A stretch of DNA of 43,158 bases, taken from IMG/VR virus record IMGVR_UViG_3300024040_000024, positions 1-43,158 of that record; one strand, 5' to 3'. Position 1 is the stretch's first letter. Each line of letters begins with the position of its first letter. This document shows, in pieces, positions 22,584-43,158 of the stretch. The notes under the pieces were generated by a model. It was not told where the DNA came from and ran no database searches. It was given only the letters and a program-made list of their open reading frames with translations. This stretch comes from a virus. Lineage: Duplodnaviria > Caudoviricetes. The position numbers were made by a program, and so were the translations under genes.

Positions 22584-23072
22584 TCAGTTCAGGCGCGGTG
22601 GTTCCGGTGTGGCGTATCGTCCGCCCACCTGATCGGCGGCTTCCTGCCGAAGCGCCTTCTTGCCCATCGCCGCCTCTTTCACAGGCGTCACGGGCGTAGC
22701 GATCCGCTCAATCTGGCCCTTCTCGAACTCCTCGCGCAAGTAGCGTGCGGCCCCGACAACGCCAGCCTTCGCCTTTTCCCACATGGACTCGTTAAGTACA
22801 GCCTGAGCCAGGGCCGCCCCATTCTGAAGCTCCCGAAAATAATACTGGCGAAGCGTCGGCTCACTCAGCCCCACCCGCAAGGCGATATCCACCGTTGCAA
22901 TACCCGAAGCCTTCAAAACCGCAACCTTTTCAGCCACTTCCGGCGAACGCTTATGACGCTTCCGCCCGCGCGGGTCTTTAAGCTCCGTCCACGGGTCGCC
23001 CAAAAGATCAAGATGGGCCGCTTTTTTCGGCTCAGACAAAAAAAATCTCCGAATGAGGGGGCCGCGGGTCAA
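22584..23072 (-). CDS. terS: terminase small subunit (start uncertain)
   Basis: HTH (IALRVGLSEPTLRQYYFREL) directly upstream of terL. Confidence 0.75.
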   Translation of the reverse strand: MTRGPLIRRFFLSEPKKAAHLDLLGDPWTELKDPRGRKRHKRSPEVAEKVAVLKASGIATVDIALRVGLSEPTLRQYYFRELQNGAALAQAVLNESMWEKAKAGVVGAARYLREEFEKGQIERIATPVTPVKEAAMGKKALRQEAADQVGGRYATPEPPRLN

Positions 23073-29256: not shown

Positions 29257-30677
29257 CAGGCGCTCCTCCTCAGAAAATCGGGCAACCGCGCCGGCAGATC
29301 GGGCAGGTAATCCATGCGGGTTTGCTTGGTGACGGCGGCGCGCTTCATCGCCTCGGCCATCGCCGCATTCATGCGGTCGTGGCCCTGGGCCTTGCGCGTC
29401 ATCACCGCGTATTGGTTGGCCTCGGCTTCAGAGCCGAAGATATGGGCATCGACCGGCCGCGCCTGGCCGAACCGCCAGAAACGCCGCAGCGCCTGGTAGT
29501 ACATCTCGTATTTATAGGTGTAGCCGCAGAAGGCGGTGCGGGCGCAGTGCTGCCAGTTCATGCCGAAACCGGCGATCTCCGGCTTGGTGACGATCTGGCG
29601 CGCCTGCCCCGTCGAGAAGGCTTCCAGCTTCTCTTCTTTTTCATCGGCCGGCATATCGCCGCGCACCTCCACGGCGCCGGGCAGCATCGCCATCAGCGCA
29701 TCGGCCTCGTAATTGGTATCGCACCAGATGCCCCAGGCCTCGTCCGGCTCGGCACAGACCCGTCCCGCCAGCGCCTCGGCCCGCGCCATGACCGACCGCC
29801 GCTTTTCGCCGTGGATCGAGGTGGCGGACGTATCGGGCAGGCGGAACATGCGCATCTGTCCGTCGCGCTCCGCACCGGCGTCGAGCGTCAGGTCCGAACC
29901 GACCACATGGCGATGCACGGTCAGGTCCGGCAGAATATAGCCGTCATCGGAATAGCCGAGATCGGACGGCGTGCGGGCGCAGCGCGCCCAACTGGCCACC
30001 CAGTCCCAGAAGGCGTTATAGGCCCCGCGCTTGATCTTGTAGCGGCCCATGTTCTTCTGATCGGCCACGAACCAGCGCGTCAGCATCTCATTCGATGACA
30101 TCACGCCCAAAAACGCCGAGTGCTGCCCCAGTTCCATATAGTCGTTCGGCGCCGGCGTGGCGGTCGCCGCCAGGCGGAATTTCAGCCCGGCAAAGCGCTT
30201 GATCAAAGCCTTCGAGGTCGCGCCGGTAAAGGATTTGAGGATCGAGCTTTCATCCAGCGCCACGCCGCCGAAATCGATATCGGCGAAGAGATGCAGCCGG
30301 TCATAGTTGATGATGTAGATGCGCGGCCCGCTGATCTCGGCAGGCTGACGGATCACCCTGGCGTCGATCCCCCATTTGGCGGCTTCGCGCTCATGCTGTT
30401 TCGTCACCCCCAGCGGCGCGGGCAGTAGAAAAGGCTTGTTGGTGTGCTCGACCACGACCCGGCCATATTCCAGTTCACAGAAAGATTTCCCCAGGCCGGT
30501 ATCGAGAAACAGCCCGGCCCGCCCGCGCTCCAGGGCGAAGGCGGTCGAATGCTGCTGATGCCCGTTCAGCTTCGGGTGCAGCGCCGGCACGGATTTCAGG
30601 CCCGCCGGCTGGAATTCGGTTTTCTTGCCGGCAATCAGCGCGCGGTAATCGTGCAGGGGATGGTTCATACGATCCAC
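29256..30677 (-). CDS. SNF2-like helicase
   Basis: DTGLGKS, LDESS, TATPAPND, GFGMNWQ and RRFWRFGQ motifs. Confidence 0.9.
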   Translation of the reverse strand: MDRMNHPLHDYRALIAGKKTEFQPAGLKSVPALHPKLNGHQQHSTAFALERGRAGLFLDTGLGKSFCELEYGRVVVEHTNKPFLLPAPLGVTKQHEREAAKWGIDARVIRQPAEISGPRIYIINYDRLHLFADIDFGGVALDESSILKSFTGATSKALIKRFAGLKFRLAATATPAPNDYMELGQHSAFLGVMSSNEMLTRWFVADQKNMGRYKIKRGAYNAFWDWVASWARCARTPSDLGYSDDGYILPDLTVHRHVVGSDLTLDAGAERDGQMRMFRLPDTSATSIHGEKRRSVMARAEALAGRVCAEPDEAWGIWCDTNYEADALMAMLPGAVEVRGDMPADEKEEKLEAFSTGQARQIVTKPEIAGFGMNWQHCARTAFCGYTYKYEMYYQALRRFWRFGQARPVDAHIFGSEAEANQYAVMTRKAQGHDRMNAAMAEAMKRAAVTKQTRMDYLPDLPARLPDFLRRSA

Positions 30678-30898
30678 CCCAGTTCAAAAAGCTGCGCCCG
30701 TCTCCGGCGGCCGAATTCCATGCGCACGCCGTCATCCAGCCAGCCGGCATGACGGCGCGCCCCGGCCATGCCGCGCAGATCGAAGGCATCGCACAGCGCC
30801 TGAATATCCATTTCCTCGCGCATCCGGCCAAGATCGCGCGCCATGCCGGCGGCGGCGGGCGTCAGGTGCAGGGGCGCGGCGACCGTCAGACTATCCAC
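30665..30898 (-). CDS. hypothetical protein
   Basis: 77 aa, tightly packed in the operon. Confidence 0.55.
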   Translation of the reverse strand: MDSLTVAAPLHLTPAAAGMARDLGRMREEMDIQALCDAFDLRGMAGARRHAGWLDDGVRMEFGRRRRAQLFELGWIV

Positions 30899-31229
30899 GG
30901 CTGACCTCCCCGGCGCGGACCACGGCCCAGCCGTCGCAGCGCTTGCCGACCTCGCCCGCCAGGCGGTGCAGATCGGGAAAATAGGCCGCGCGCCGCGGAC
31001 TGTCGCAGGCCAGCAGCGCCACCTCGATCAGCCGCACACAGACATTGCCCGCCCCCAGTGGCCCGAAGACGGTCAGCTTGCGCGCCGCCTCGGCCTTGTC
31101 TTTCAGGCTGGCCATATCGTGGCTCTGGCCGGTGGCCACCCGCCCGGCATGATCCGCCAGCGCCCGCCAGCCGATAACCTCGGCGCTGACCGGCTGATAG
31201 GATTTGGTGGCGTTGGCGCTATAGCCCAT
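30891..31229 (-). CDS. hypothetical protein
   Basis: 112 aa with GGAGG RBS, tightly packed. Confidence 0.6.
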   Translation of the reverse strand: MGYSANATKSYQPVSAEVIGWRALADHAGRVATGQSHDMASLKDKAEAARKLTVFGPLGAGNVCVRLIEVALLACDSPRRAAYFPDLHRLAGEVGKRCDGWAVVRAGEVSRG

Positions 31230-31863
31230 TATACCGCCTCCCGATCTGATCGAGCGAAGGCCGGCGCTGTTTCACCGCCGCCGGCCTCATGCCCCTGGTG
31301 TTCATCTTCGGTGTTGGCGCGGCCGCCACTACCTTGTGCTCTGCGCACCACGCGTCAAACCGCCCGCGCGGCCCACGGGCGCACGGACAACCACAAAACA
31401 GCGGCGCCGGTGCATTGGCGGCGCTGACCACCATACGGCATTGCCCGGCCCGCAGGTCGAGCAGCCCCACCGGCGGCCGATCCGCCACGGCCGGAACCTG
31501 CAAATCGTTGCCGTCCGGCCCGCTGACACGCGGCTCCATCCGCCCACGCGAACTGAGCGCCTGATAGGGCGTCTGCGGTGTATGGATCAGCCGTGGCTTC
31601 ATCCCCAGCCCCATGCCGGCCGTGCGGGGTTTCGGCTTGGGCGTCACCGCCTTTACACGCGCCGAAACCTGCCAGCCCTTGCGATGGATGACACTGATCA
31701 CGGCATTGCGCGTCTTCATGATGCCCAGATCGGCGCGCAGCCTGTTGGCAATCTGCGCCGCCGATAAATTGGCCGCCTCGCGCCGGACCAGTTCGAGCGC
31801 GTCCGGCGTCCAGGTCGATGTACCGTTATTCGACCGGCCATCCGGTCCCGTGTTTCCCGTCAT
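31219..31863 (-). CDS. gcrA: GcrA-family cell-cycle regulator homologue
   Basis: WT.....SAAQIA..L...TRNAVI..HR N-terminus; LLDL..GQCR...FCG.P...WCAEH C-terminus; start placed at ATG 31863. Confidence 0.85.
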   Translation of the reverse strand: MTGNTGPDGRSNNGTSTWTPDALELVRREAANLSAAQIANRLRADLGIMKTRNAVISVIHRKGWQVSARVKAVTPKPKPRTAGMGLGMKPRLIHTPQTPYQALSSRGRMEPRVSGPDGNDLQVPAVADRPPVGLLDLRAGQCRMVVSAANAPAPLFCGCPCARGPRGRFDAWCAEHKVVAAAPTPKMNTRGMRPAAVKQRRPSLDQIGRRYNGL

Positions 31864-32330
31864 CAGGCCCCTCCGGCGTGATTCAGTTTGACCAGCAGCG
31901 CCTGAAACGCGCCGATGGCGTCGATGATTTCCCGGCTGGCCAGGGCGCGTTCGTTCGGCGTCATCGCGCCGTCCGCCAGCCCCGCCATGATCGCGGTCAC
32001 GGCCTCGCCGGTTTCGCGCAGGGCGTTCCCCACCTGCGCCTGCACGTCCGGCTCCGGCGCCGAGGCCGCGCGCGCCACGGGCACCAGTTGCAGACCGAGC
32101 ATCGCCGCCAGATCGTCGGCGAAGACGCGCACCCCCGAATGAGTCAGGGCGCGCACCGTCTTGTAAGAGGTATCGACGGCATGGCGGCCTTCCAGATAAG
32201 GATTGGTCGAATCGCGCAGCCGCTTTTCCGGCAGGCCGGTGATAATGGCCGCGTCCGCCAGCCCGCCCGCCTGCGCGATGGCCCGCTCGACCACCCCATG
32301 CAGACTCATCGGATCGCGCAGGATCGTCAT
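31863..32330 (-). CDS. CII-family phage regulatory protein
   Basis: HTH-like N-terminus and ETGEA....LADG.MTP.ER...EI pattern; position downstream of cro. Confidence 0.65.
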   Translation of the reverse strand: MTILRDPMSLHGVVERAIAQAGGLADAAIITGLPEKRLRDSTNPYLEGRHAVDTSYKTVRALTHSGVRVFADDLAAMLGLQLVPVARAASAPEPDVQAQVGNALRETGEAVTAIMAGLADGAMTPNERALASREIIDAIGAFQALLVKLNHAGGA

Positions 32331-32977
32331 CGCGCGCCTCCATCGGATGAATGGCCCGTGCCGGCGTCAGGCCCACCGGCACGGGTTGCTTCTCCTTCAC
32401 AACCCGGAGTAGGGTTGCGGTTCTGACACACAGGAGAATGGGAATGGATATCGTTACGATCGGCGGGGCGCTGAGTAGCGCCAACACGGCCTTCAACATA
32501 ATCAGGACAGCCGTTGGCGCGACCGCCAAAGCCGAAACAACCGCCGCTGTAACCAGCCTGAATGACGCCTTGCTTCGCGCCTCCCAGGCCGCGCTGATTC
32601 TGCAGGAAAAGATCGTAGCGCTCGAGAGCGAGAAAGCGCAGCTTGAAAAGGAAATTGCACGCCTCAAACGTACACATCACCATTTCGAAGATTATCGGCT
32701 TCGCGATGTCGAAACCGGGGCGTTTGTGTATGCGTACGAGCCAGCCGTGAAAGGCGACAGGGCCGACGCACAGCCACCGAAGCCACCGCACTGGCTCTGC
32801 GTGCCATGCTTTGAGGACGGTTACACGAGCATCCTGCAACTTTCGGAAGGCAAGACGGATATATTCCGGCACGTCTTCTATCGATGCCCGAAGTGTCACA
32901 AAGCGATTTCCGTGGACATCGAAACAACACCTGCCGGCATAAAACCGCTTCGGGAATTTTAATTCGCCGCGGCTCAT
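32327..32977 (-). CDS. carrier ORF (216 aa) linking cro to cII across an antisense gene
   Basis: starts ATGAGCCGCG overlapping the cro stop, ends ATGA-overlapping cII, no stop across the + strand gene. Confidence 0.4.
   Translation of the reverse strand: MSRGELKFPKRFYAGRCCFDVHGNRFVTLRASIEDVPEYIRLAFRKLQDARVTVLKAWHAEPVRWLRWLCVGPVAFHGWLVRIHKRPGFDIAKPIIFEMVMCTFEACNFLFKLRFLALERYDLFLQNQRGLGGAKQGVIQAGYSGGCFGFGGRANGCPDYVEGRVGATQRPADRNDIHSHSPVCQNRNPTPGCEGEATRAGGPDAGTGHSSDGGAR
32355..32449 (+). promoter_or_regulatory. hairpin plus sigma70-like promoter plus RBS module, copy A
   Basis: CCCGTGCCGG..CCGGCACGGG stem, TTGCTT-18-TAGGGT, AGGAGA, ATG; 80/95 identical to the reverse complement of 36677-36771. 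Confidence 0.75.
32444..32962 (+). CDS. antisense accessory (moron) protein: coiled coil plus Zn ribbon
   Basis: own RBS; coiled coil; HWLCVPCF...SILQ...CPKC. Confidence 0.8.
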   Translation: MDIVTIGGALSSANTAFNIIRTAVGATAKAETTAAVTSLNDALLRASQAALILQEKIVALESEKAQLEKEIARLKRTHHHFEDYRLRDVETGAFVYAYEPAVKGDRADAQPPKPPHWLCVPCFEDGYTSILQLSEGKTDIFRHVFYRCPKCHKAISVDIETTPAGIKPLREF

Positions 32978-33270
32978 CTCCCACCGCCAATCGGCTCGCC
33001 CGCCGGTTGCCCGACAAGTGCCGCCGATTTGTCGGTAGGATCGCACCCGCCAATGGGCGAAGATGCGGGGATGAGATCAGAAGGCAACTCTATGAGACTA
33101 AGTTCTTCAACCGCGCGAGAAAAACGACGCGTCGCAACGTCAGCTCCCGCATGAAGCTGATCAAGCCGCGTACCGCTGCCGAAGAGGCGCTTTGATATGG
33201 TGGATCGCGTCCAACCTTTCATTGCCGCAACGGCATCTGCACGGTGCAAAAATTCGTCCATGGTCATCAT
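32974..33270 (-). CDS. cro: Cro-like repressor
   Basis: small HTH (STISKRLFGSGTRL) divergent from cI; ATG 33270 is near the predicted TSS, so possibly leaderless. Confidence 0.7.
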   Translation of the reverse strand: MMTMDEFLHRADAVAAMKGWTRSTISKRLFGSGTRLDQLHAGADVATRRFSRAVEELSLIELPSDLIPASSPIGGCDPTDKSAALVGQPAGEPIGGGR

Positions 33271-33277
33271 GCAATGG

Positions 33278-33356
33278 AGCATAATTGTGAAACTTCACAC
33301 TTGTCAATGTGAAACTTCTCAGGTGCCGTTACCATTGTGCGGTGTTAAGTTTCACA
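33278..33356. promoter_or_regulatory. OR operator region with pR
   Basis: TGTGAAACTTCACA 33286-33299, TGTGAAACTTCTCA 33308-33321 and TGTTAAGTTTCACA 33343-33356; minus strand TTGACA-18-TATGCT. Confidence 0.85.
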
Positions 33357-33358
33357 CA

Positions 33359-34036
33359 ATGAACTTTGGCGAACGCTTAAACACCCTGATGACAGTACGC
33401 GGCTTCAATCAGAATTCGCTCGCAAAGGCTTGCGGTTTTGGCGAAACAGCAATTCGGGATTTGATTAAGGGCACGGCAAAAGAGCCGCTTGGGAGCCGTT
33501 TGTATAAAATTGCATCAGTGCTGGACGTGAGAATGGAAGACATTCTTGGCGAGCCTCGACTTGTTGCCGATATGGACGGAACCGAATATAATGAGGAACC
33601 TGTAGAAGAGACGTCCCGTGATATTGTGTTAATTCCGGAATATGACGTTCAATTGGCTGCGGGGGCGGGGACATATGCCAATGGCGATGTAATTAAGGAC
33701 ACTTGGCCGTTTTCACGACGCTTTCTTAATTCTGCAATACGAGGAAATGTTGATCAATTGTCGGTCGTAGAAGTGGTCGGCGACAGCATGACACCAATTC
33801 TGCAACCGCAAGACCGTATTATTGTAAATCATTCTGATACAAACCCGTCACCGCCCGGCATATTTGCACTTTGGGATGGCTATGGCCTCGTGGTGAAAAA
33901 AGTACAGCGTATTCACAAATCAGATCCTGAAAAAATTATGTTGATTTCGGAAAACTCTTCCTACCCTGCGTATGAAGTATTGGTTGACGAAGTAACGATA
34001 ATTGGTCGTGTCGTCTGGTTTTCAAGAAAAATGTAA
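33359..34036 (+). CDS. cI: CI-like repressor (XRE HTH plus S24 peptidase)
   Basis: NQNSLAKACG HTH, AAGAG cleavage site, GDSM and VVKK catalytic motifs, IIGRVVW. Confidence 0.92.
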   Translation: MNFGERLNTLMTVRGFNQNSLAKACGFGETAIRDLIKGTAKEPLGSRLYKIASVLDVRMEDILGEPRLVADMDGTEYNEEPVEETSRDIVLIPEYDVQLAAGAGTYANGDVIKDTWPFSRRFLNSAIRGNVDQLSVVEVVGDSMTPILQPQDRIIVNHSDTNPSPPGIFALWDGYGLVVKKVQRIHKSDPEKIMLISENSSYPAYEVLVDEVTIIGRVVWFSRKM

Positions 34037-34064
34037 TGTTTTTCTTTTAGAGGGGGAGAATCTT

Positions 34065-34451
34065 ATGCAATTTAGATATGTTTTTGCGTCTATTATTTTT
34101 ATAGGCACTTCGTCCTGCGCCGTGACGCCTCAAACCTCTTTGTCTACTTTGAATACATCTGACCCCAAGTATGCCTCAGAGGAATGCTTGCAAGGTCGAA
34201 ATATAGCCATGAAATATGATAACAAAACCCTAGTGAGGGGTAGCCTCGATATCGCAACATTTCTTGCGGGTCCGATCGCCACGGGTGCTTATAGTCTTAC
34301 AGATGCTGGCCACGTCAAGGATCGTCAAGCAATCATCGAGGAGGTGAAGCGTAGGTGCATAACAAATTACGGTACACCTGATTATAATGCTACCAAGGAT
34401 AGCCGTAGGTGCGAAGAAAAAGACGGGAAAGTTCAATGCGAAGCGCTTTAA
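34065..34451 (+). CDS. putative lipoprotein (accessory)
   Basis: GGGGGAG RBS, signal peptide ending TSSC, low GC. Confidence 0.65.
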   Translation: MQFRYVFASIIFIGTSSCAVTPQTSLSTLNTSDPKYASEECLQGRNIAMKYDNKTLVRGSLDIATFLAGPIATGAYSLTDAGHVKDRQAIIEEVKRRCITNYGTPDYNATKDSRRCEEKDGKVQCEAL

Positions 34452-34834
34452 TTGCGATCTTGCTTCTCGCGGTCACATCCACAACTTCTCAAGCTGAAAC
34501 CCATTCAATGTTTTCGTATAATGGGGGGCGGTTTCCTGTGATTGTTGACGGCTTAAAGTTCATAGTGGTGCCTCACAAAAAATACGACACTCTTATGATG
34601 CAGGCCGCTTTAAGTTCACCAGCTGGTGCGGATACGCCCATCGAAACCTGGCGGCGCGTTGCAGAGGCTTTTGTCCAGCCTGTAGGCTGCGGCATTTCCA
34701 GTGTAGAGGCCATAACTAAAATGGGCGCGACATGGGAAGCAACCTATATTTGTCCGGCCGGTGTGGATTTACATGGCCTTATAAAGGCTCAAAAAGTTAG
34801 CCTAAAGAATGGCTTACCGCTTACCTCTCATTAA
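34436..34834 (+). CDS. putative secreted/periplasmic accessory protein
   Basis: signal peptide MRSALIAILLLAVTSTTSQA; two Cys. Confidence 0.65.
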   Translation: MRSALIAILLLAVTSTTSQAETHSMFSYNGGRFPVIVDGLKFIVVPHKKYDTLMMQAALSSPAGADTPIETWRRVAEAFVQPVGCGISSVEAITKMGATWEATYICPAGVDLHGLIKAQKVSLKNGLPLTSH

Positions 34835-34887
34835 ACCATGGTGATGGCACAACCGTCTGCCAATTCCGTAAATTGTTGGAGCGTAGT

Positions 34888-35322
34888 ATGGGCTTATTGT
34901 CGTTATTGTTTGGGCGAAGACGCAACTCTAATAAAGGGTCTTTATTGATTCGCGGCGAGGGAGATTTTCTTTTCGAGATCGTTGGCGAACGAAATTATCA
35001 AGAAATCCTAGATGCTGTTTGCGGCGGCAAATGCACAGACGGTCATGAAAAACTTATTGCGGTGACGCTTATACCTGAGCCAACAAACCCACACGACCGC
35101 AATGCCGTCAAAGTCGATATGGCGGGCCATACAGTGGGTTACCTATCACGCGCCGATGCGAGAGATTATCTGGCAGAATTGACTGCTGCTGGATATGCGG
35201 GATTTGAAGCACAATGTCGCGCGCATATCGTAGGTGGCTGGAAAGACGCACGAAGCGAAGGCCATTATGGCGTTAAACTCGATATAGAAATGCCACCGGA
35301 CTTTGTTTTTGCACCTGATTAA
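34888..35322 (+). CDS. HIRAN-domain-like protein
   Basis: IVGERNYQ, LIPEPTNPHDRNAVKV and VGYLSR motifs. Confidence 0.8.
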   Translation: MGLLSLLFGRRRNSNKGSLLIRGEGDFLFEIVGERNYQEILDAVCGGKCTDGHEKLIAVTLIPEPTNPHDRNAVKVDMAGHTVGYLSRADARDYLAELTAAGYAGFEAQCRAHIVGGWKDARSEGHYGVKLDIEMPPDFVFAPD

Positions 35323-35332
35323 ATAGCGCGAT

Positions 35333-35382
35333 TGTGAAATTTCACATTTTATATTGACTATTGTGAAAGTTCACAATAGCTT
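35333..35382 (+). promoter_or_regulatory. OL operators with pL
   Basis: perfect palindrome TGTGAAATTTCACA 35333-35346 and TGTGAAAGTTCACA 35362-35375; TTGACT-17-TAGCTT. Confidence 0.85.
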
Positions 35383-35415
35383 TCTCCCCACACACCCACC
35401 AACGGGAGTTTGGGG

Positions 35416-35931
35416 ATGCCCTTCGAAACCGCCTTACAGACTGATATCTCGCCGTTTCAGCGCTGGCTGGATAGCTGCACCCACCATGGCGATGGTGCGG
35501 TCGGGCATAGCGTAGCGACCGTCGATCTCTACCTCAGCTACAAATCCTTCATGGTCGGGGCCGGTCATCGGGACTGGATGAGTTTCAAGGTCTTCGGCCT
35601 CGCCCTCTCACAGCATCAGGTTCGCCACGCCGGACTGCAACCCGAAACCGGCCTCCATTTGCGCGGCCCGATCAGATTTCTTTTTAGTGAAGCAAGGCGC
35701 CCGCGCGATATATCACCGTCAACGTACCGTCTGCCGATCGACGAGCGTCGGCAGATAAGTGAGCGGTTAAGGCAGCGTGAACGGCAGGAGGGGCTTTATC
35801 TGACAGCCGATACGAAAGTATCACGGGCATTGATTGACCTCATTTGTGAAGTGGTGGAAACGAACCTTCTCCATGTCGCCAGACGGCAACAAGCCACGCC
35901 CGCCGCAAAAACGGAAGGCGGTGCGCAATGA
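35416..35931 (+). CDS. stand-alone primase-C-terminal-like winged-helix protein
   Basis: N-terminal ~85 aa align by eye with the C-terminus of the 24639-26243 product (SPF..WL, DL...YK, K.FG.ALSQ.Q.R.AG, RGPIR). Confidence 0.75.
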   Translation: MPFETALQTDISPFQRWLDSCTHHGDGAVGHSVATVDLYLSYKSFMVGAGHRDWMSFKVFGLALSQHQVRHAGLQPETGLHLRGPIRFLFSEARRPRDISPSTYRLPIDERRQISERLRQRERQEGLYLTADTKVSRALIDLICEVVETNLLHVARRQQATPAAKTEGGAQ

Positions 35932-35938
35932 GCCGCGT
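35895..35938 (+). repeat. 44-bp gene-junction direct repeat, copy 1
   Basis: CACGCCCGCCGC-N5-CGGAAGGCGGTGCGCAATGAGCCGCGT; 39/44 identical to 36350-36393. Confidence 0.9.
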
Positions 35939-36386
35939 GCGGCCCAATATGGCGTCCGTCAGCAAGCTGGCCTCAGATACCGGCCTGAGCATTGAAGACG
36001 CCGGCTTTCTCCTGTCGCGCGCCATCAACGCGCGCGGCGATGCGCGTGAATTCGATGTCTGGACGATGCGGCCTGTCGAGGCTATCGCCGAGGGTGCAAC
36101 AGTTGAAGAATCTGCTTCACATCAACCAGTGAATCGTAAGCCCGGTCAGGCACGTCCGGATGATTATTCAACTCCAGGTACATCAGATCTAGCACTGAAT
36201 TCGCCTGCTCAAGTGCTTCTGGTGTTACGCGCTGCGCAACAATTTCTCGCAATTCATGAAGCGCGTCTTCTGGAAGGCGCAACGGCGGCTGAACTTTGCG
36301 CATATGTCGATATCCTTTTGGCGGCCAACAATTTGGCCACGAACGCTATCACGCCCGCCGCCCCGGCGGAAGGCGGTGCGCAATGA
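35928..36386 (+). CDS. hypothetical/carrier ORF enclosing an antisense gene
   Basis: starts ATGAGCCGCG; ATGA-coupled at both ends. Confidence 0.55.
   Translation: MSRVRPNMASVSKLASDTGLSIEDAGFLLSRAINARGDAREFDVWTMRPVEAIAEGATVEESASHQPVNRKPGQARPDDYSTPGTSDLALNSPAQVLLVLRAAQQFLAIHEARLLEGATAAELCAYVDILLAANNLATNAITPAAPAEGGAQ
36082..36303 (-). CDS. nested antisense small helical protein (73 aa)
   Basis: AAAGGA RBS; possible extended -10 TGaTAGCGT upstream; amphipathic helical composition. Confidence 0.55.
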   Translation of the reverse strand: MRKVQPPLRLPEDALHELREIVAQRVTPEALEQANSVLDLMYLELNNHPDVPDRAYDSLVDVKQILQLLHPRR

Positions 36387-36393
36387 GCCGCGT
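36350..36393 (+). repeat. 44-bp gene-junction direct repeat, copy 2
   Basis: see copy 1; a partial third copy GAAGGCGGTGCG..ATGA lies at 36773-36790. Confidence 0.9.
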
Positions 36394-36790
36394 CCTGAAA
36401 CCTGCCGACCTGCATCGGGCCTATAAGGATTGGGCCGCGTTACCCCGCGTCCCTGTCACGCGCCTCTGCCCGTGCCGCTTCCTCGATCCAGGTCAGATGT
36501 CGCTCCATAATCGCAAGGCCCTCCGAATCGAAAGGCGCTTTGCTTTCGACGCGATGGCGAATGTACTCCGCCATGCCTTCAGGATTGTCTGTAAGGCTTA
36601 CGACCGCGCACGCCAGATGATTGAACATATGTTCCATCACGAATACGCGCCGGATCAAATCGTTGATAACCGTCTCATCCATTCGGTTTCTCCTATGTGT
36701 GGTAACCGCAACTCTAATCAGGGTTGTGAAGGAGATGCAACCCGTGCCGGCGGTCATGCCGCCGGCACGGGTGAAGGCGGTGCGGCATGA
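36383..36790 (+). CDS. carrier ORF enclosing an antisense gene and its promoter
   Basis: starts ATGAGCCGCG; ATGA-coupled at both ends; C-terminus is the translated promoter module. Confidence 0.4.
   Translation: MSRVLKPADLHRAYKDWAALPRVPVTRLCPCRFLDPGQMSLHNRKALRIERRFAFDAMANVLRHAFRIVCKAYDRARQMIEHMFHHEYAPDQIVDNRLIHSVSPMCGNRNSNQGCEGDATRAGGHAAGTGEGGAA
36440..36682 (-). CDS. antisense accessory (moron) protein, 80 aa
   Basis: AGGAGA RBS and promoter module copy B; starts MDETVINDLIRR. Confidence 0.7.
   Translation of the reverse strand: MDETVINDLIRRVFVMEHMFNHLACAVVSLTDNPEGMAEYIRHRVESKAPFDSEGLAIMERHLTWIEEAARAEARDRDAG
36677..36771 (-). promoter_or_regulatory. hairpin plus sigma70-like promoter plus RBS module, copy B
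   Basis: perfect 13-bp stem 36741-36771, TTGCAT-18-TAGAGT, AGGAGA, ATG. Confidence 0.75.
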
Positions 36791-36960
36791 AGCAGATCCT
36801 CACCGACCTGACCGCGTTGGCCGCCGTGGTGCTGACCATGGCCGTTATCATCGGCTGGATCATCGTCCTGACGCCGATGGCCGAATCAATGGATGCCGAT
36901 GGCGGCTACGCACCGGACCCGGCGCCGCTGACCGCCCTGATCGAGGGAGGCCGCGTATGA
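36787..36960 (+). CDS. small membrane protein (57 aa)
   Basis: hand-translated MKQILTDLTALAAVVLTMAVIIGWIIVL...; ATGA-coupled at both ends. Confidence 0.6.
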   Translation: MKQILTDLTALAAVVLTMAVIIGWIIVLTPMAESMDADGGYAPDPAPLTALIEGGRV

Positions 36961-37262
36961 CCGTCCGCCCCGAAAAGCCGCATTATATCCTGCTGCGCTG
37001 CGTCGAGCCGGGCGGGCCGTTCGTCCTCAATCAGAGCTACTACGCCCTGAAAGCCCACCGCGCCGGGCCGCACGAAACCTTTTTCGACGTCTGGGTCGAG
37101 GGCGAAATCCGCGTCGAACGCGATACCCGCTTCACGCCGCTCAACCGCAATAACTGGTGGCTGTTCAGCATCCAGCAGCGCGAACGTTTCCATGTGCCGC
37201 CGCCCTGGTCGCGTGTCTGGAACCGCCCCCAGAACTGGCCCCAAAACCGGAGGGCCGCATGA
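36957..37262 (+). CDS. hypothetical protein
   Basis: GGAGG RBS; starts MTVRPEKPHY; coupled to neighbours. Confidence 0.6.
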   Translation: MTVRPEKPHYILLRCVEPGGPFVLNQSYYALKAHRAGPHETFFDVWVEGEIRVERDTRFTPLNRNNWWLFSIQQRERFHVPPPWSRVWNRPQNWPQNRRAA

Positions 37263-37441
37263 CGGATCATCCTGTCGAGGATCACGAACAGCCGCTCTAT
37301 GCGCCGCCCTATCCGGAGCCTGACGTGCCCGTCGATCACCGCTACCGGGCGCAGGTCCTGGGCCTGCTGACCGCCGGATGCCTGTTCTTTTTCGCCGGCG
37401 TGGCCTGGCTCGCCTCGCTGCTGTGGATCGCCTTCACCTGA
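37259..37441 (+). CDS. small membrane protein (60 aa)
   Basis: GGAGGG RBS; C-terminal TM segment. Confidence 0.6.
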   Translation: MTDHPVEDHEQPLYAPPYPEPDVPVDHRYRAQVLGLLTAGCLFFFAGVAWLASLLWIAFT

Positions 37442-37488
37442 CCGCCTCCGCGCGCCGGGCCTGCCCCCTGAGCCGGCGCGCGTCACCG

Positions 37489-37531
37489 GAGCGGCGGAAA
37501 TCCCACCCCCCCTGATTTTCGCCGCTCTTTT
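37489..37531 (+). terminator. intrinsic terminator-like hairpin
   Basis: GAGCGGCGGAAATC...GATTTTCGCCGCTC followed by TTTT. Confidence 0.55.
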
Positions 37532-37556
37532 CCCCTCCACCCACCGGAGACTCCAA

Positions 37557-38492
37557 ATGGACACCGAAACCACCACACCCCAGGATATCACACCGAAGTC
37601 ATGGGCGATGAATATCCGCGCCATGGCCGGCGAAGGCACGCTGCGTCAAAAAGTCTGGAACAAAGACGGCGAAGGCAAGCACATCGCCTGTATCCTCGGC
37701 GCCGCCCGCAGCGATATCATGTCCGTCGATCAGGTGCCTTGCGCCGCCCTGTGTATGCCGCCATGGCTGGCCCGCATCACGCCCGACATGTTCGACGCGC
37801 TGCCCGCCGCGGAAGCCGTCGATTACGCCCTGCGCTATGCCGATGTCATCGAAGGCTGGTGCGTCCTGACCCCGCGCGCCTGGCGGCGCATCGATATCCG
37901 CTTCCGCGCCTTCTGCACCCGTCAGGCGCTCGACGCCGCCCGCCTGCGCCATGCCCAGGCCCCGCGTTCGGAAAAGGAATACTGGCTCAAGGTCAGGGCT
38001 GTTTGTGAGGCCACGGCCACCATGCTCGAAGAGCAGGCCGGAGAGGTTCATGGGCCAGGCGAAGCGGCCCATGCATCCGATGCGGCCTATGCGGCCCGTG
38101 CTGCGGCCTATGCGGCCCGTGCTGCGGCCTATGCGGCCGATGCGGCCGATGCGGCCGATGCGGCCCGTGCTGCGGCCTATGCGGCCGATGCGGCCGATGC
38201 GGCCCGTGCGGCCTATGCGGCCTATGCGGCGGCCTATGCGGCGGCCTATGCGGCCCGTGCTGCGGCCTATGCGGCCGATGCGGCCTATGCGGCCGATGCG
38301 GCCTATGCGGCCGATGCGGCCGATGCGGCCTATGCGGCCCGTGCGGCCTATGCGGCCCGTGCGGCCCGTGCGGCCGATGCGGCCTATGCGGCCTATGCGG
38401 CCCGTGCGGCCCGAAAAGATCAGTTCGATCAGATCATCACCCTGATCGCCGGTGAAATTGCCGAAGCCGCGACATATCCGGGTGGTTCGTGA
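37557..38492 (+). CDS. Ala-rich repeat protein
   Basis: GGAGA RBS; globular N-terminus, then about 115 aa of AA(Y/D/R) repeats. Confidence 0.8.
   Translation: MDTETTTPQDITPKSWAMNIRAMAGEGTLRQKVWNKDGEGKHIACILGAARSDIMSVDQVPCAALCMPPWLARITPDMFDALPAAEAVDYALRYADVIEGWCVLTPRAWRRIDIRFRAFCTRQALDAARLRHAQAPRSEKEYWLKVRAVCEATATMLEEQAGEVHGPGEAAHASDAAYAARAAAYAARAAAYAADAADAADAARAAAYAADAADAARAAYAAYAAAYAAAYAARAAAYAADAAYAADAAYAADAADAAYAARAAYAARAARAADAAYAAYAARAARKDQFDQIITLIAGEIAEAATYPGGS
38064..38414 (+). repeat. tandem 9-bp repeat GCGGCC(TAT/GAT/CGT)
   Basis: roughly 35 units with occasional extra Ala codons. Confidence 0.95.
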
Positions 38493-38526
38493 ACAAACGC
38501 CCGCCCACCAGCCCCATCGACACCCC

Positions 38527-38559
38527 CCGTTCCGGCTAAATCGCCGGAACGGTTCTCTT
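38527..38559 (+). terminator. hairpin terminator
   Basis: CCGTTCCGGC-TAAATC-GCCGGAACGG followed by TTCTCTT. Confidence 0.55.
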
Positions 38560-38597
38560 AACCCACCCAAACCGGCCCCAGCCTTTCAGGTGAAACC

Positions 38598-39239
38598 ATG
38601 TCCCTCGCTGTCGCACTGGATCAACCCACCGAATACGATCGCGCCGTCGCATATACCCGGCACAAGCCGTCCGTCACGGCGAAGCTGATGGCCCGTGATC
38701 TCGGCATCGCGCCCACGGTTGCCAAGGGTTTCATGGCGCGCATGGCGCAGGAAAAGATCATCGCGCCGCCGAACGATCTCGGCCGGGCGCTGGTCATCGC
38801 CGCGCCCCGGTCCTATGAGGAACTGTCAGCCCGCAGCGGCGAACTGGCCAGTCTCGCCATGGCGGTCAGTGAAACGACAGGCATCCCGCCGACGCGGCTG
38901 GTTGGCGCCGCCATATCCGGCGATCTTCAGGATATTCATGACGCCAGTCTGGCGGCGGATGAATCGGCCATTCCCGATAACACACCGATGGCCGATAACG
39001 TGATGTCCGGCGCCGCCCAAACCCGTCTGCGCACCATCGTCGAGCGCATCGAGCGGCTGGAGGAAGACAAGGCCGGCATCATGGCCGACATCAGCGAAGT
39101 CTATACCGAGGCTAAGGGCGAGGGCTTCGATGTTAAAATCCTGCGCAAGGTCATACGCCTCCGCAAGATGGATAAGACCAAGCGTGATGAGGAAGAAACC
39201 ATACTCGATCTGTACATGACCGCGATAGGGGATAGGTGA
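38598..39239 (+). CDS. gapR: GapR (DUF2312) protein with N-terminal FtsK-gamma-like winged helix
   Basis: C-terminal RLRTIVERIERLEEDKA..I.EVY.EAKGEGFDVKILRKVIRLRK; N-terminal YDRAV...MARDLGI...A..M..M....II. Confidence 0.85.
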   Translation: MSLAVALDQPTEYDRAVAYTRHKPSVTAKLMARDLGIAPTVAKGFMARMAQEKIIAPPNDLGRALVIAAPRSYEELSARSGELASLAMAVSETTGIPPTRLVGAAISGDLQDIHDASLAADESAIPDNTPMADNVMSGAAQTRLRTIVERIERLEEDKAGIMADISEVYTEAKGEGFDVKILRKVIRLRKMDKTKRDEEETILDLYMTAIGDR

Positions 39240-39559
39240 TGGCTGTATCCCATATTCGGGCCATCCTTCTAGCGCGTGCCAACCGACTGGCTCATCACAC
39301 CTCATTCCTGACTGATCAAGAACTACTGGTCTATGCAGTTGAGCAGGCCACCGGTCGCAAGCGAGTTACTGTATGGCAAGCTGTCGAGTTCGCCGAAGGC
39401 GTCTTCTTTGCAGAAAGTGCGAAAAATTCAACTTGTGCAAATAATGCACAAGTTGGAGGGACATGCTGTACATGCCCCAAACGACCGAACAAGCCGCCCG
39501 CTACAGGATACTGGAAGTGCCGTGATTGCGCCGCTCAATGGTCTTGGGAGGGCGAATAG
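39236..39559 (+). CDS. hypothetical Cys-rich protein
   Basis: C-terminal CTCP...WKCRDC Zn ribbon; lower GC. Confidence 0.55.
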   Translation: MMAVSHIRAILLARANRLAHHTSFLTDQELLVYAVEQATGRKRVTVWQAVEFAEGVFFAESAKNSTCANNAQVGGTCCTCPKRPNKPPATGYWKCRDCAAQWSWEGE

Positions 39560-39888
39560 TGCCTGAAATCCTGATCAGCTATTTCGATTGGTCGCCATCG
39601 CCAGTCCCATGGGAAGCGCTGTTGATTGCGCCGCTGGCGGCGCTGAAAACCGTCCTGACACGGATCGAACGCGCGCCGCACCAGATCGCCTTTCGCCCGT
39701 TCGCGCCGGCCTTCGCCATTTATGCCCGCCTGCCGGACATGACGGACGATGACGGCAAGCCGCTCGCCGTGCCCTTCGCGGTCATCCATTCGGGCATGAC
39801 CCAGGCCGAAGCCGAAACCCTCAAAAATCAACTCAAGGCGGAACGCTGGACACCCGCCGCCGCAGATATCTTCAAGGAGGCCGCATGA
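39559..39888 (+). CDS. hypothetical protein
   Basis: GGAGGG RBS before GTG 39559; coupled to neighbours. Confidence 0.6.
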   Translation: MPEILISYFDWSPSPVPWEALLIAPLAALKTVLTRIERAPHQIAFRPFAPAFAIYARLPDMTDDDGKPLAVPFAVIHSGMTQAEAETLKNQLKAERWTPAAADIFKEAA

Positions 39889-40736
39889 ATACCTATACCA
39901 CCCTCCGCCAGGCCAATGCCGCGCGGCAATCCCGCTGGGACGCCGGCAACCGGATCACCCTGGCCTATCGCGCCAATGAAATGGCGGGTGAGGTCGGCGA
40001 GGCCTGCAATATCGTCAAGAAACTCGAACGTGAGCGTCTGGGGCTGAAAGGCAGCCGCGCCAGTCTTGACGATCTGGCGCTTGAACTGGCCGATGTCGTG
40101 ATCACCGCCGATCTGGTGGCGATGTCGGAAGGCATCGATCTTGATCGCGCTGTCGCCGCCAAGTTCAACCTGACCTCCGAGAAGGTCGGCTTCCCCGAAC
40201 GTATCGCATGGCCAGGCGTCTCCATGCCAGCACTGACCGCCGGTCTGCAAACCTATGCCAGCGCCGAAGATATGCGCGCCTGGGCCAGGGCGATCATGCA
40301 AAGGCCGCCGGATTTCATCATCGGCGACAACTATCTGCGCCGCTGGTGGATTGTGCCGCGCAACGAGCAGCAGAATGTCTATCTGCACGAAATCCTGCGT
40401 AGCGACGATGACCGCGCTCTGCATGACCACCCGTGGCCGAATACTTCCGTCGTCATCGAAGGCGAATACATCGAGCACACGCCGCACGGCAGCTTTGTCC
40501 GCCAGGCTGGCGCTATCGTCTCGCGCCAGGCCACCGATGCTCACCGCCTCGAAATCCCCGAAGGCGGCCGGGCCGTCTCCCTGTTCTTCACCGGCCCAAA
40601 GGTCCGCGACTGGGGCTTCTATTGTCCGCAAGGCTGGCGGCCGTGGCAGGAATTTTGTTCACCGACAGACAGCAGCAAGGCAGGCATCGGCTGCGGTGAA
40701 CACGCGCCACTCACTCCTGAACAGAGGGCGGATTGA
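39885..40736 (+). CDS. MazG-like nucleotide pyrophosphohydrolase fused to a cupin-like domain
   Basis: [20 protein letters not shown] followed by [28 protein letters not shown]. Confidence 0.8.
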
Positions 40737-41210
40737 TGGCCGGTGTCAACAAAGTCATCCTGGTCGGCAATCTGGGCAAAGACCCGGAAATCCGCACGTC
40801 AAACAGCGGCGACAAGATCGCCAACCTGACCGTGGCCACCTCCGAAACGTGGCGCGATAAGCAGACCGGTGAGCGTAAGGAAAAGACCGAATGGCATCGC
40901 GTCGTCATCTTCAATGACGGCCTGGCCAAGGTCGCCGAAGAGTATCTGCGCAAGGGATCGACGGTCTATCTCGAAGGCCAGCTCGCCACCCGCAAATGGA
41001 CCGACCAGCAGGGCAATGACCGCTATTCCACGGAGGTCGTGCTGCAACGCTATGGCGGCAACCTGACCCTGATCGGCGGCCGCCGTGACGGCGCCGGCCG
41101 ATGGCCCCGATGACTATGACCAGACACGCACGCGCGGGATCAGCAATGGCGAAGCTCATCGCGCCGCGCCCGGCGAACAATTCCCGCTTGATGATGAAAT
41201 CCCGTTCTAG
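40736..41210 (+). CDS. ssb: single-stranded DNA-binding protein; frame 0 stops at 41113, acidic tail in +1 frame to 41210
   Basis: [15 protein letters not shown] and [11 protein letters not shown] fold; LDDEIPF* in the +1 frame. Confidence 0.9.
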
Positions 41211-41219
41211 GAGGGCGAT

Positions 41220-41729
41220 ATGAGCGACGGTAATTTCAAATGGTGGTTCACCCTCTATGAAGATGGCGAGTATTGGGATGGTCCCTATGACACGCGAGAC
41301 AGCGCGATCATTGCCGGGCATGACGTCTATGGGGAAGCCGAACCGTTTTACATCTGTGAGGCCGATAAAGCGCTATATTCCTTCACCGGCTTGTTTGACG
41401 GTGATTATGATGACGATCTGGCGCCGGCACTGATGGTAATCGATGCCGACTACGTTCTTGAGCGATGGGCGGAGACTGACCAAGCGATCAATAAGGATGG
41501 TTGGGAAGAGGGTGATTTCACGGCCGATGATTTGGAGGCCCTGACAAACGCCCTGCACGCCGCCCAACTGACGCCCTCACCGAACCCCGATTCAAGCCGC
41601 CCGCGCGCAGACGCCCTTTCCATGGCGTTTCAAAACTGGGCGGAACCCCGGCGCGTCAAATTTGGCGCCGTCTTTGTGTTCGGCAAGGTTCGTAACCATG
41701 AAAAGGTCGAGGGGCAAGTCACCCCATGA
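41220..41729 (+). CDS. acidic hypothetical protein
   Basis: GGAGGG RBS; GPYDTRDSAI motif. Confidence 0.7.
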   Translation: MSDGNFKWWFTLYEDGEYWDGPYDTRDSAIIAGHDVYGEAEPFYICEADKALYSFTGLFDGDYDDDLAPALMVIDADYVLERWAETDQAINKDGWEEGDFTADDLEALTNALHAAQLTPSPNPDSSRPRADALSMAFQNWAEPRRVKFGAVFVFGKVRNHEKVEGQVTP

Positions 41730-42088
41730 CCCCAGCTGACCAACTCCCCATCCTGATGAAGGAAGCCCGCGCCGCCGCCGAACTGGGCATATCGATCGAT
41801 ACGCTGCAGCGCATCCGCCTGCGCGGTGAAATCGCCTATCGCCGGCTGGGCCGGCGCATGATCCGCTACACCCCCAAAGACCTGCTCGAATACCTGGAGA
41901 ATCAGAAGACATGCCAACCGAAGACCGAATCAGTGAAATCGGCGGTTTCTGGCTCTCGAAGCGGGAGCGGTCGCCGTTCTGGCATATCACCTGGTTCGAC
42001 GCCGGCCGCCGCCAGACCCGACGCCTCAGCACTGGCGAGCGCGATCTTCGCCCCGCAGAAATCGTCCTCGCGCAGCACGTCGCACTGA
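41726..42088 (+). CDS. xis: excisionase-like HTH protein
   Basis: AAAELGISIDTL..G.I.Y..LG.R.IRY...DL.EYL; overlaps the int 5' end. Confidence 0.75.
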   Translation: MTPADQLPILMKEARAAAELGISIDTLQRIRLRGEIAYRRLGRRMIRYTPKDLLEYLENQKTCQPKTESVKSAVSGSRSGSGRRSGISPGSTPAAARPDASALASAIFAPQKSSSRSTSH

Positions 42089-43158
42089 ATTCCGCGCCGC
42101 GCGATGAAAAGCCGGCGGACGCCCTAATCGCCGATGTGCTGATGCGCTACTGGCTGCACCACGCCCGCCATAAGCCCAGCCACGAACAGGCCCGCGTCGC
42201 GCTGGCCCTGTGGAACGAATACTGGGGCAACAAGACCGTCTCGGATATCACGCCCCACGAACAGATCCGCTTCGTCGCCTGGCTGCGCGAATACCGTCAG
42301 AACAATCCCCGCAAGGGCCGCACCGACGCGCCGATGACCACCGGCTATATCAACCGTGTCCTGACTGTCGGCCGGGCGGCGCTCAACCGGGCGCAGAAGC
42401 TTCAGGAACTGGCGGCTGCGCCGTTCATTTTCCCCGCCGAAGGCAAGGGCGATAAGCGCAAACACATCAAACTGAGCAAGGATCAGTTAAAGGCGCTGAT
42501 CATGGCCGCGCTCGACTACCAGCCGCATATGGTGCTGTTTATCCTGATATCGCTGAATACCCTGGCCCGGCCGGAAGCGGTGCTGGAACTGGCGCCGCAA
42601 CAGACCGACCACAACGCCCGCCTGATCGACCTGAATCCGCCGGGGCGGGCGCGCACCAAAAAAGGCCGGCCCATCGTGCCGATGACGGATACCATCTTTC
42701 CATTCCTGACCAGCGAGACACCGGAAGACGAAACCGAAGAAGAATACCAGGGCCGCATGGAACGGCCGTTCATCTTGTGGCACGGCAAGCCGGTCAAAAG
42801 CATCAAGCGCGCCTTCGCCAAACTGGTGAAGACCGCCAACCTGCCCGAAGGCACCACGCCCTACAGCCTGCGCCACACCATGGCCAGGGAACTGCGCACG
42901 CGCGGCGTGCCGTGGGAAGAAATTCAGGGGATGCTTGGCCACAAGATCAGATTGGACGATTCATCCAGCGCCACCGAGGCCTATGCCGAATACGACCCCA
43001 ACTATCTCAGCCTGGGCCGCAAGGCTATCGATGCGCTTTTTAAAGAACTCTGCGTGCCACTTGCGTTGCACTCCGGGAAGATGGACCTCACCAAACCCTT
43101 AAAGGGAATGGTGGGCGCTACAGGGATTGAACCTGTGACCCCTACCATGTCAAGGTAG
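41911..43158 (+). CDS. int: tyrosine recombinase (integrase)
   Basis: LARPEAV (R), RTKK (K), YSLRH, MLGH and AYAEY catalytic motifs. Confidence 0.93.
   Translation: MPTEDRISEIGGFWLSKRERSPFWHITWFDAGRRQTRRLSTGERDLRPAEIVLAQHVALNSAPRDEKPADALIADVLMRYWLHHARHKPSHEQARVALALWNEYWGNKTVSDITPHEQIRFVAWLREYRQNNPRKGRTDAPMTTGYINRVLTVGRAALNRAQKLQELAAAPFIFPAEGKGDKRKHIKLSKDQLKALIMAALDYQPHMVLFILISLNTLARPEAVLELAPQQTDHNARLIDLNPPGRARTKKGRPIVPMTDTIFPFLTSETPEDETEEEYQGRMERPFILWHGKPVKSIKRAFAKLVKTANLPEGTTPYSLRHTMARELRTRGVPWEEIQGMLGHKIRLDDSSSATEAYAEYDPNYLSLGRKAIDALFKELCVPLALHSGKMDLTKPLKGMVGATGIEPVTPTMSR
43109..43158 (-). tRNA. 3' half of tRNA-Val(GAC), the att site (truncated by the window edge)
   Basis: reverse complement CTACC-TTGACAT-GGTAG GGGTC ACAGG-TTCAATC-CCTGT AGCGCCC ACCA gives anticodon arm, T arm and CCA. 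Confidence 0.92.

Follow-up and report, generated by a model that had tools for sequence, protein, structure and literature searches.

Why do genes that run backward inside a tightly coupled lytic operon leave the other strand free of stop codons? The question is raised by a 43,158-nucleotide (nt) virus record (Caudoviricetes; IMGVR_UViG_3300024040_000024), which was analysed whole and is called the window here. In its two early operons, three open reading frames (ORFs) on the operon strand extend over three backward ORFs; the spanning frames are called bridges, or carriers, and the enclosed ORFs cargos. Open frames of this kind exceed chance both in the window and in the protein family of cargo 1, which by profile and fold is a homologue of the prophage protein Rip1. 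We consider, at a probability of roughly 0.6, that the three operon-strand frames are under selection to remain translatable, which would keep ribosomes on the lytic mRNA throughout each insert. The bridge peptides themselves would likely be by-products.

The initial annotation presented the bridges as a standard cassette format, and parts of its description hold. The three carriers (216, 152 and 135 codons) have zero internal stops and are joined by ATGA overlaps to the stop of the preceding gene and the start of the following one. Their common start, ATGAGCCGCG, occurs exactly three times in the window, at 32977 on the minus strand and at 35928 and 36383 on the plus strand, a number reached in 2 of 300 shuffles (mean 0.31). 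Two of these copies lie within one 44-nt direct repeat (35895-35938 and 36350-36393, 89%) and thus are not independent; the third junction copy matches over 21 nt at 86%. In the related locus L094 the cII gene itself begins with ATGAGCCGCG (12993), which makes the motif a usual junction start for phages of this group: a lineage-specific junction repeat instead of a part of a standard format. The GGA-x run said to end each carrier is found literally, as GGAGG, in carrier 1, while carriers 2 and 3 end in GAAGGCGGTGCG..ATGA. Enclosure of an opposite-strand ORF is seen in all three carriers, and of the ribosome-binding sites (RBSs) claimed for these ORFs, that of cargo 2 is weak (AGGA). Carriers 1 and 3 are codon-aligned to their cargos, in the stop-poor frame, and have this reverse ORF through avoidance of TTA, CTA and TCA, the layout called ambigrammatic. 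Carrier 2 is offset and does not fit this layout.

Antisense frames in this register are stop-poor in general. Over 34 window genes the in-register frame has 87 stops in 10199 codons (0.85% per codon), against 3.1% and 4.0% in the other frames, so that openness by chance had to be tested. Cargo codons were resampled from neighbour genes matched for GC content at third codon positions (GC3) and the remainder was shuffled, with 3000 runs for each bridge. The simulated probability (P) of an open frame was 0.031, 0.005 and 0.079 for bridges 1, 2 and 3, and 0.079, 0.041 and 0.389 for the cargo parts alone. The low background rate agrees with an account in which the frames are not selected at all, being shadow frames joined to recombination scars, where RBS-ATGA insertion itself gives the coupled ends; the junction repeats would likewise account for the identical starts. 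It agrees less well with other features of the window, since the cargos have a low GC3 (0.51-0.64), the frame of bridge 2 is rich in stops, and the non-coding parts of the bridges are likewise open and in phase.

A larger sample is offered by the relatives of cargo 1. That a defence-type cargo is present, as the initial annotation had suspected, is borne out by sequence profile and fold. Cargo 1 falls in phrog_1244, with 1339 clusters at an expect value (E) of up to 0.001. Its family profile (106 members) matches PDB 9OOX, which is Rip1, at E 9e-35, and the single sequence does so at E 4.5e-7. The predicted model of cargo 1 (predicted local distance difference test, pLDDT, 87) matches 9OOX with a Foldseek probability of 1.0, and under E 0.001 the Foldseek matches are two 9OOX chains only (template modelling score 0.43-0.55 by query). 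The shared fold has long N-terminal helices and a C-terminal beta domain carrying cysteine pairs. In the family, C119 and C122 are invariant and C148 and C151 are present in at least 90% of members; in cargo 1, an N-terminal helix is predicted at residues 3-25. tblastn with cargo 1 matches genes of HK446 and D3112-like phages, and a word-indexed protein search returned the query alone. Rip1 is a prophage protein, encoded between the terminase genes, which forms a pore around small terminase rings (PMC13434031). The sources on Rip1 are this review, a meeting report (PMC12908700) and PDB 9OOX.

The Rip1 sample comprised 66 sequences (44 genome loci, 14 viral loci, 5 phage records, 2 copies of the source contig, and the window), and 53 were kept after 13 had been dropped (2 with no hit, 5 with no start call, 2 duplicates, 4 under 100 residues). 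Nineteen of the 53 have no TTA, CTA or TCA codon, against 3.3 expected from 237 neighbour genes, and this number was reached in 0 of 200000 simulations. The total of these codons is 85 where 188 were expected. The shortage is seen for TCA (0.142 vs 0.195), CTA (0.048 vs 0.098) and TTA among TTR codons (11/125 vs 141/626), and it is confined to these three; other A-ending codons are not reduced. Junction coupling, scored by one uniform rule, goes together with openness. A coupled in-register start is present in 11 of the 19 zero-stop genes and 3 of the 34 others (p 2e-4), although the frame of L064, one of these 11, closes ahead of the gene. A coupled end is found in 13/19 against 9/34, and six of the 19 open frames end without a coupled start. 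Coupling at both ends occurs in 9/19 against 0/34 (p 2e-5), or in 8/18 when the window is left out, and the two other frames show no link between stop absence and coupling. The nine bridged Rip1 proteins share 24-47% identity and do not cluster on a quick tree that is mostly unresolved. Thus the openness lies beyond shadow-frame chance, in line with the window simulations, and shadow frames with scars are an unlikely explanation, since no simulation yields 19 zeros and both-end coupling appears only at zero stops. At two loci of this sample, L024 and L031, the same RBS-start junction flanks the rip1 cassette on both sides, as in the window.

Comparison with related prophages shows how the slots themselves vary. 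Close relatives of the window were found neither by blastn on phages nor by searching viral contigs with the leader pattern and with cII, and a metagenome scan gave the window's own contig only. One relative (71%) was returned by a word-indexed protein search with cII. The cII query matched 8 of 401 genomes, and 8 of the 9 matching places were compared. The slot between cro and cII is empty and directly coupled in L091 and L092, holds sense genes in L098 and is a 168-nt gap in L097. Clear backward ORFs occupy it in L093, L095 and L096, and all three loci are bridged (129 codons; 321 codons; 193 plus 196 codons). In L094 a 69-codon coupled ORF runs over a doubtful backward ORF, and a viral locus, L103, has three chained bridges (286, 148 and 215 codons) over four backward ORFs. 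On the other side, the pL leader of L092 leads straight to a homologue of gene 36787, so that the pL units of the window are inserts relative to L092; a homologue of the gene at 35416..35931 was not found in L092. Two backward calls were inspected in the pL operons of the relatives: that of L094 has a 208-codon bridge, and that of L095 is a shadow of a real lytic gene. As the initial annotation had anticipated, the cargo changes while the format stays, the slot being empty, directly coupled, or filled by other backward genes that are bridged.

The same contrast is found in Casadabanvirus. Without an insert, terS and terL are annotated with a 4-nt overlap in 4 records. With rip1 between them, all five alleles examined are open on the lytic strand from the terS stop to 11 nt beyond the terL start, and three of the five have a coupled ATG; the alleles share their 5' half and so are not five independent trials. 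Between LPB1 and DMS3, 41 substitutions are silent in the cargo and change the bridge, against 7 of the reverse kind. Because the substitutions fall mostly at cargo third positions and alter bridge residues, the bridge protein looks unconstrained in these Pseudomonas alleles; for the window's own bridges, relatives were found in none of nine related loci. In phage Forsyth (L068, 747-1268), GenBank annotates the bridge frame as a gene and omits the rip1 homologue on the opposite strand.

This drift of bridge residues bears on another explanation, that the lytic-strand ORFs are counter-defence proteins which neutralise the phage's own cargo in lytic growth. Precedents are published: anti-Tab, which lies opposite tab and is required, shares one base with the terS stop (PMC10884400), Ith antisense-overlaps the tha operon (PMC11087260), and Fc02 gene 10 and olg1 overlap, both excluding phages (PMC9936078). 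The idea is most plausible for bridge 2, since its protein-like composition score is 0.10 (0.00-0.03 for bridges 1 and 3) and its first 51 codons are free of overlap; long free N-termini are also present in bridges of L096 and L103. On the other hand, bridge 1 has just five free codons, the rip1-bridge residues drift as described, and bridge 2 has a poor Atlas model (pLDDT 0.45). No family match was obtained for any of the three bridges in Pfam, phrog and further family searches. Furthermore, JBD24 has a backward gene that, compared by description, resembles a Tab homologue, and a coupled ORF that in the same way resembles anti-Tab; this putative Tab-type locus stops short of terL, which means that counter-defence needs no full bridge. 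A prediction of the complex of cargo 2 with bridge 2 scored 0.02, which gives no verdict and is used neither way. Shorter forms of bridge 2 had no match in a word-indexed protein search. Taken together, counter-defence is an unlikely general explanation of the bridges. In L103, an 84-aa sense gene with a strong RBS (463-717) is situated between two backward ORFs within the 286-codon bridge, in a different frame, and is a candidate counter-defence gene.

If selection acts on translatability, the following steps of expression and mechanism may be inferred. mRNA that ribosomes leave bare is exposed to Rho, with termination and polarity as the result (PMC12360218). With a backward insert, 400-650 nt of the lytic mRNA would be left untranslated and the ATGA coupling would be lost; an open frame coupled at both ends would repair both defects, with the bridges passing ribosomes to cII and on to the pL genes downstream. 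Each cargo would, in the lysogen, be expressed from its own promoter, and after induction pR and pL transcription opposing the cargo would damp its expression. Cassettes are likely gained and lost via recombination at the repeated RBS-ATGA junctions. The bridges would then serve phages without N-type antitermination, and the rip1 locus of HK446, which lies beside N, has 2 in-register stops and is unbridged, fits this as a single case. A wider proposition, to which we give even odds, is that a translatable operon strand is the condition on which such phages tolerate backward defence genes in lytic operons. They would hence maintain a general class of pass-through ORFs, indifferent as to protein and doubly coupled, which keep three codons out of the defence gene; together with junction repeats and a leader of promoter and hairpin, these would make up a swappable cassette.

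Bridge translation may instead serve the fate of RNA, by protecting the lytic mRNA against decay or against pairing with the cargo mRNA, or by helping to drive opposing polymerases off the cargo promoter. In ambigrammatic narnaviruses the reverse ORF is required, possibly because ribosomes protect the RNA (PMC8316113). The bridges do span the putative cargo promoter and the conserved hairpin, and both the open frames without a coupled end and the base composition of bridge 1 given below agree with this idea. Nevertheless, the precise stop-to-start coupling, seen in the Rip1 sample and in all bridges of the window, is better explained by ribosome handover, and a role in RNA fate is judged improbable.

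Several observations weigh against selection on the open frame for ribosome passage. The base counts of bridge 1 (C181/G193) show no C>G skew of the Rho utilization (Rut) type, and the genes downstream of the bridges possess their own RBSs. The P values of the window are post hoc, since the window was chosen for this feature, and for bridge 3 the cargo alone explains little (P 0.39). In the Rip1 sample, the neighbour classes come from a crude gene caller that missed the cro of the window. Co-oriented homologues are depleted of the three codons too (22 against 50 expected, and none in 2 of 12), which makes part of the signal family-wide, and with halved rates 10.9 zeros are expected, which brings P to 0.004. 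Stops are carried by 12 of 21 nested Rip1 loci and by three of four further Rip1 loci; JBD24, VW-6B, HK446 and Xfas53 are unbridged. The format is therefore not universal, contrary to what the initial annotation had supposed, and both the stops in nested genes and the depletion in co-oriented ones are also what shadow frames would give. At the Casadabanvirus locus, DMS3 and D3112 have no coupled ATG or GTG, just CTG at -4 or TTG at -20 by eye. The coupled ORF of JBD24 covers just part of the backward gene and ends 235 nt before terL, a counterexample, and anti-Tab shows that such frames can encode real counter-defences.

The other two cargos are small. Cargo 3 is probably a real gene: its Atlas model is confident (pLDDT 0.83), with feature hits under 0.9 and no family assigned. 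Cargo 2 is a likely gene, with less certainty; it shows a gene-like base pattern only, and it had no family match. PADLOC gave no match for the cargos. A relationship of the small cargos to each other or to the JBD24 protein in the Tab position was rejected (no BLAST alignment, 12-19% identity), and a shared small helical type is only an impression.

Cassettes 1 and 3 have in common a 95-nt leader of hairpin, promoter-like element and RBS (84% identity), which the initial annotation missed. Before both cargos and facing them, TTGCWT-N18-TAGRGT is followed by AGGAG; in leader 1 it reads TTGCTT (32386-32391)-N18-TAGGGT (32410-32415) on the plus strand. This promoter was read by eye and is absent from the listing of a consensus promoter scan. 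The leader folds better than shuffles (z -2.2 to -4.4), and in the distal hairpin three base pairs are changed on both sides, the five copies representing two lineages only. Cargo 2 is without the leader and has no clear promoter there. The same leader precedes unrelated cargos in L096 and L103. Strong matches to a leader model were limited to its five training copies over 75 sources, and 151 genomes gave a strong match in one and six weak matches of 27-32 bits; the leader is lineage-restricted. Weaker matches of about 18 bits are found at 2958-3042 of L057 and at 38515-38602 of the window, in the gap preceding the GapR-domain gene. A stress-sigma (RpoE2-type) promoter in the leader was rejected, no GGAAC box being seen by eye, and so was an antisense RNA of the P4/P1 type (C4, IsrK), with no Rfam match at E up to 5 in 30000-43158.

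The window forms one virus record and has a temperate-phage layout, with an integrase, a cI-like repressor, a cII-like gene, and GcrA and GapR domains (Table 1). Because of these two domains and of relatives from a Caulobacteraceae sample, its host is presumably alphaproteobacterial. The names cro, pR and pL are assigned by position, and the gene at 32974..33282 is taken as cro from its place opposite cI. A putative small terminase gene (22584-23039) is likewise named from its position. A 19-nt motif, ATTGTGAAA.TTCACA, occurs in four copies at both early promoters (33284-33324 and 35331-35378), likely as repressor operators. Two small genes after cI (34065-34834) are 54% identical to the pair at the same position in L092, and the next gene, with a HIRAN domain, has weak PADLOC matches to PDC-M03B. 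A long array of 9- and 12-nt units at 38022-38410, within a gene for 311 aa, encodes AAY/AAD/AAR repeats. The integrase end has the 3' portion of a tRNA (43112-43158), a likely attachment site, and a transposase-like ORF was seen by eye at the opposite end (255-860).

Table 1. Features of the two early operons of the window and of the cassettes nested in them.
Feature	Position	Strand	Evidence or remark
cII-like gene, downstream of bridge 1 (ATGA overlap)	31863..32330	-	Pfam Phage_CP76 E 1.4e-8; phrog_101
Bridge (carrier) ORF 1, 216 codons, antisense and codon-aligned to the rip1 homologue	32327..32977	-	
Cassette leader 1: GC hairpin (inverted repeat I1), promoter-like element, RBS AGGAG	32344..32446		promoter-like element facing +
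Cargo 1, Rip1 homologue by profile and fold, 172 aa	32444..32962	+	phrog_1244 E 1.5e-28
cro-position gene, stop overlapping bridge 1 start	32974..33282	-	phrog_7669 (function unknown) E 1.1e-8
cI-like repressor, helix-turn-helix and S24 peptidase	33359..34036	+	
First gene of pL-like operon, stop overlapping bridge 2 start	35416..35931	+	
Junction repeat copy 1 (RBS and ATGAGCCGCG)	35895..35938	+	family D8, 44 nt, 89%
Bridge ORF 2, 152 codons, offset frame, first 51 codons overlapping nothing	35928..36386	+	
Cargo 2, 73-aa ORF, likely gene	36082..36303	-	weak RBS
Junction repeat copy 2	36350..36393	+	family D8
Bridge ORF 3, 135 codons, antisense and codon-aligned to cargo 3	36383..36790	+	
Cargo 3, 80-aa protein, probable gene	36440..36682	-	strong RBS
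Cassette leader 2, same element as leader 1	36680..36782		TTGCAT-N18-TAGAGT, promoter-like on -
Gene downstream of bridge 3 (ATGA overlap)	36787..36960	+	49% identity over 43 residues to first pL gene of L092

The initial annotation did not recognise this architecture as a named system, and this stands for one half of it. Backward morons in lytic operons, switched by opposing transcription, are published (PMC11087260, PMC10884400, PMC7067206, PMC12197685, PMC9936078), so that the antisense switch is already described, in noncontiguous operons, P22 sieB/sas and Tab. For the bridge, no report was found: a search of the open literature gave no paper on coupled stop-free frames across phage inserts, where subscription papers, the original Rip1 paper and supplements lie outside this scope and may bear.

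To Rip1, cargo 1 is similar in sequence, fold and cysteine pairs and in its prophage location, and the Rip1 homologues of HK446 and D3112-like phages also lie backward in lytic operons. It differs in being about 25-30% identical and in occupying the cro-cII slot of a putatively alphaproteobacterial prophage. By analogy, cargo 1 is predicted to act like Rip1, as a pore triggered by ring-forming proteins of incoming phages, such as small terminase or portal. In phage P22, sieB lies backward in the pL operon. This prophage exclusion gene is under antisense RNA control by sas, which makes it similar to what is proposed for the cassettes, while P22-type lambdoid phages differ in having N antitermination (PMC7067206, PMC12197685). 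The noncontiguous operons of S. aureus, with Tha and Ith, likewise have an antisense gene nested in an operon; there, however, defence is encoded in the lysogenic operon and inhibited by the product of the antisense gene, and the account, as far as it is covered, has no stop-free coupled frame across the insert (PMC11087260). Tab and anti-Tab of Pseudomonas phage JBD26 come close: the defence gene lies backward in a lytic operon and has its own promoter, and the ORF on the lytic strand is coupled to the stop of the gene before it, as is also seen for the window bridges (PMC10884400). Anti-Tab is a functional protein, whereas the bridges of the window span both cargo and putative promoter and reach to the start of the next gene.

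Selection on a reverse frame has been published for ambigrammatic narnaviruses, in which a long ORF without homologues runs over a real gene and translation itself may be selected (PMC8316113). These are eukaryotic RNA viruses in which the whole segment is involved, whereas the window has short DNA cassettes in bacterial operons, coupled at both ends. If the reading of the bridges as ribosome passages is right, selection on translation without selection on protein would extend to DNA phages and would explain defence hotspots inside tightly coupled lytic operons. It would also account for the annotation error in Forsyth, where the bridge was annotated and not rip1, and would give a signature for new defence genes, namely a backward gene without TTA, CTA and TCA beneath a doubly coupled reverse frame. 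The window itself adds a defence-type cargo that can be named, a leader in repeated use, alleles with an empty slot and, in the terS-rip1-terL region of DMS3, D3112 and MP38, a laboratory model locus.

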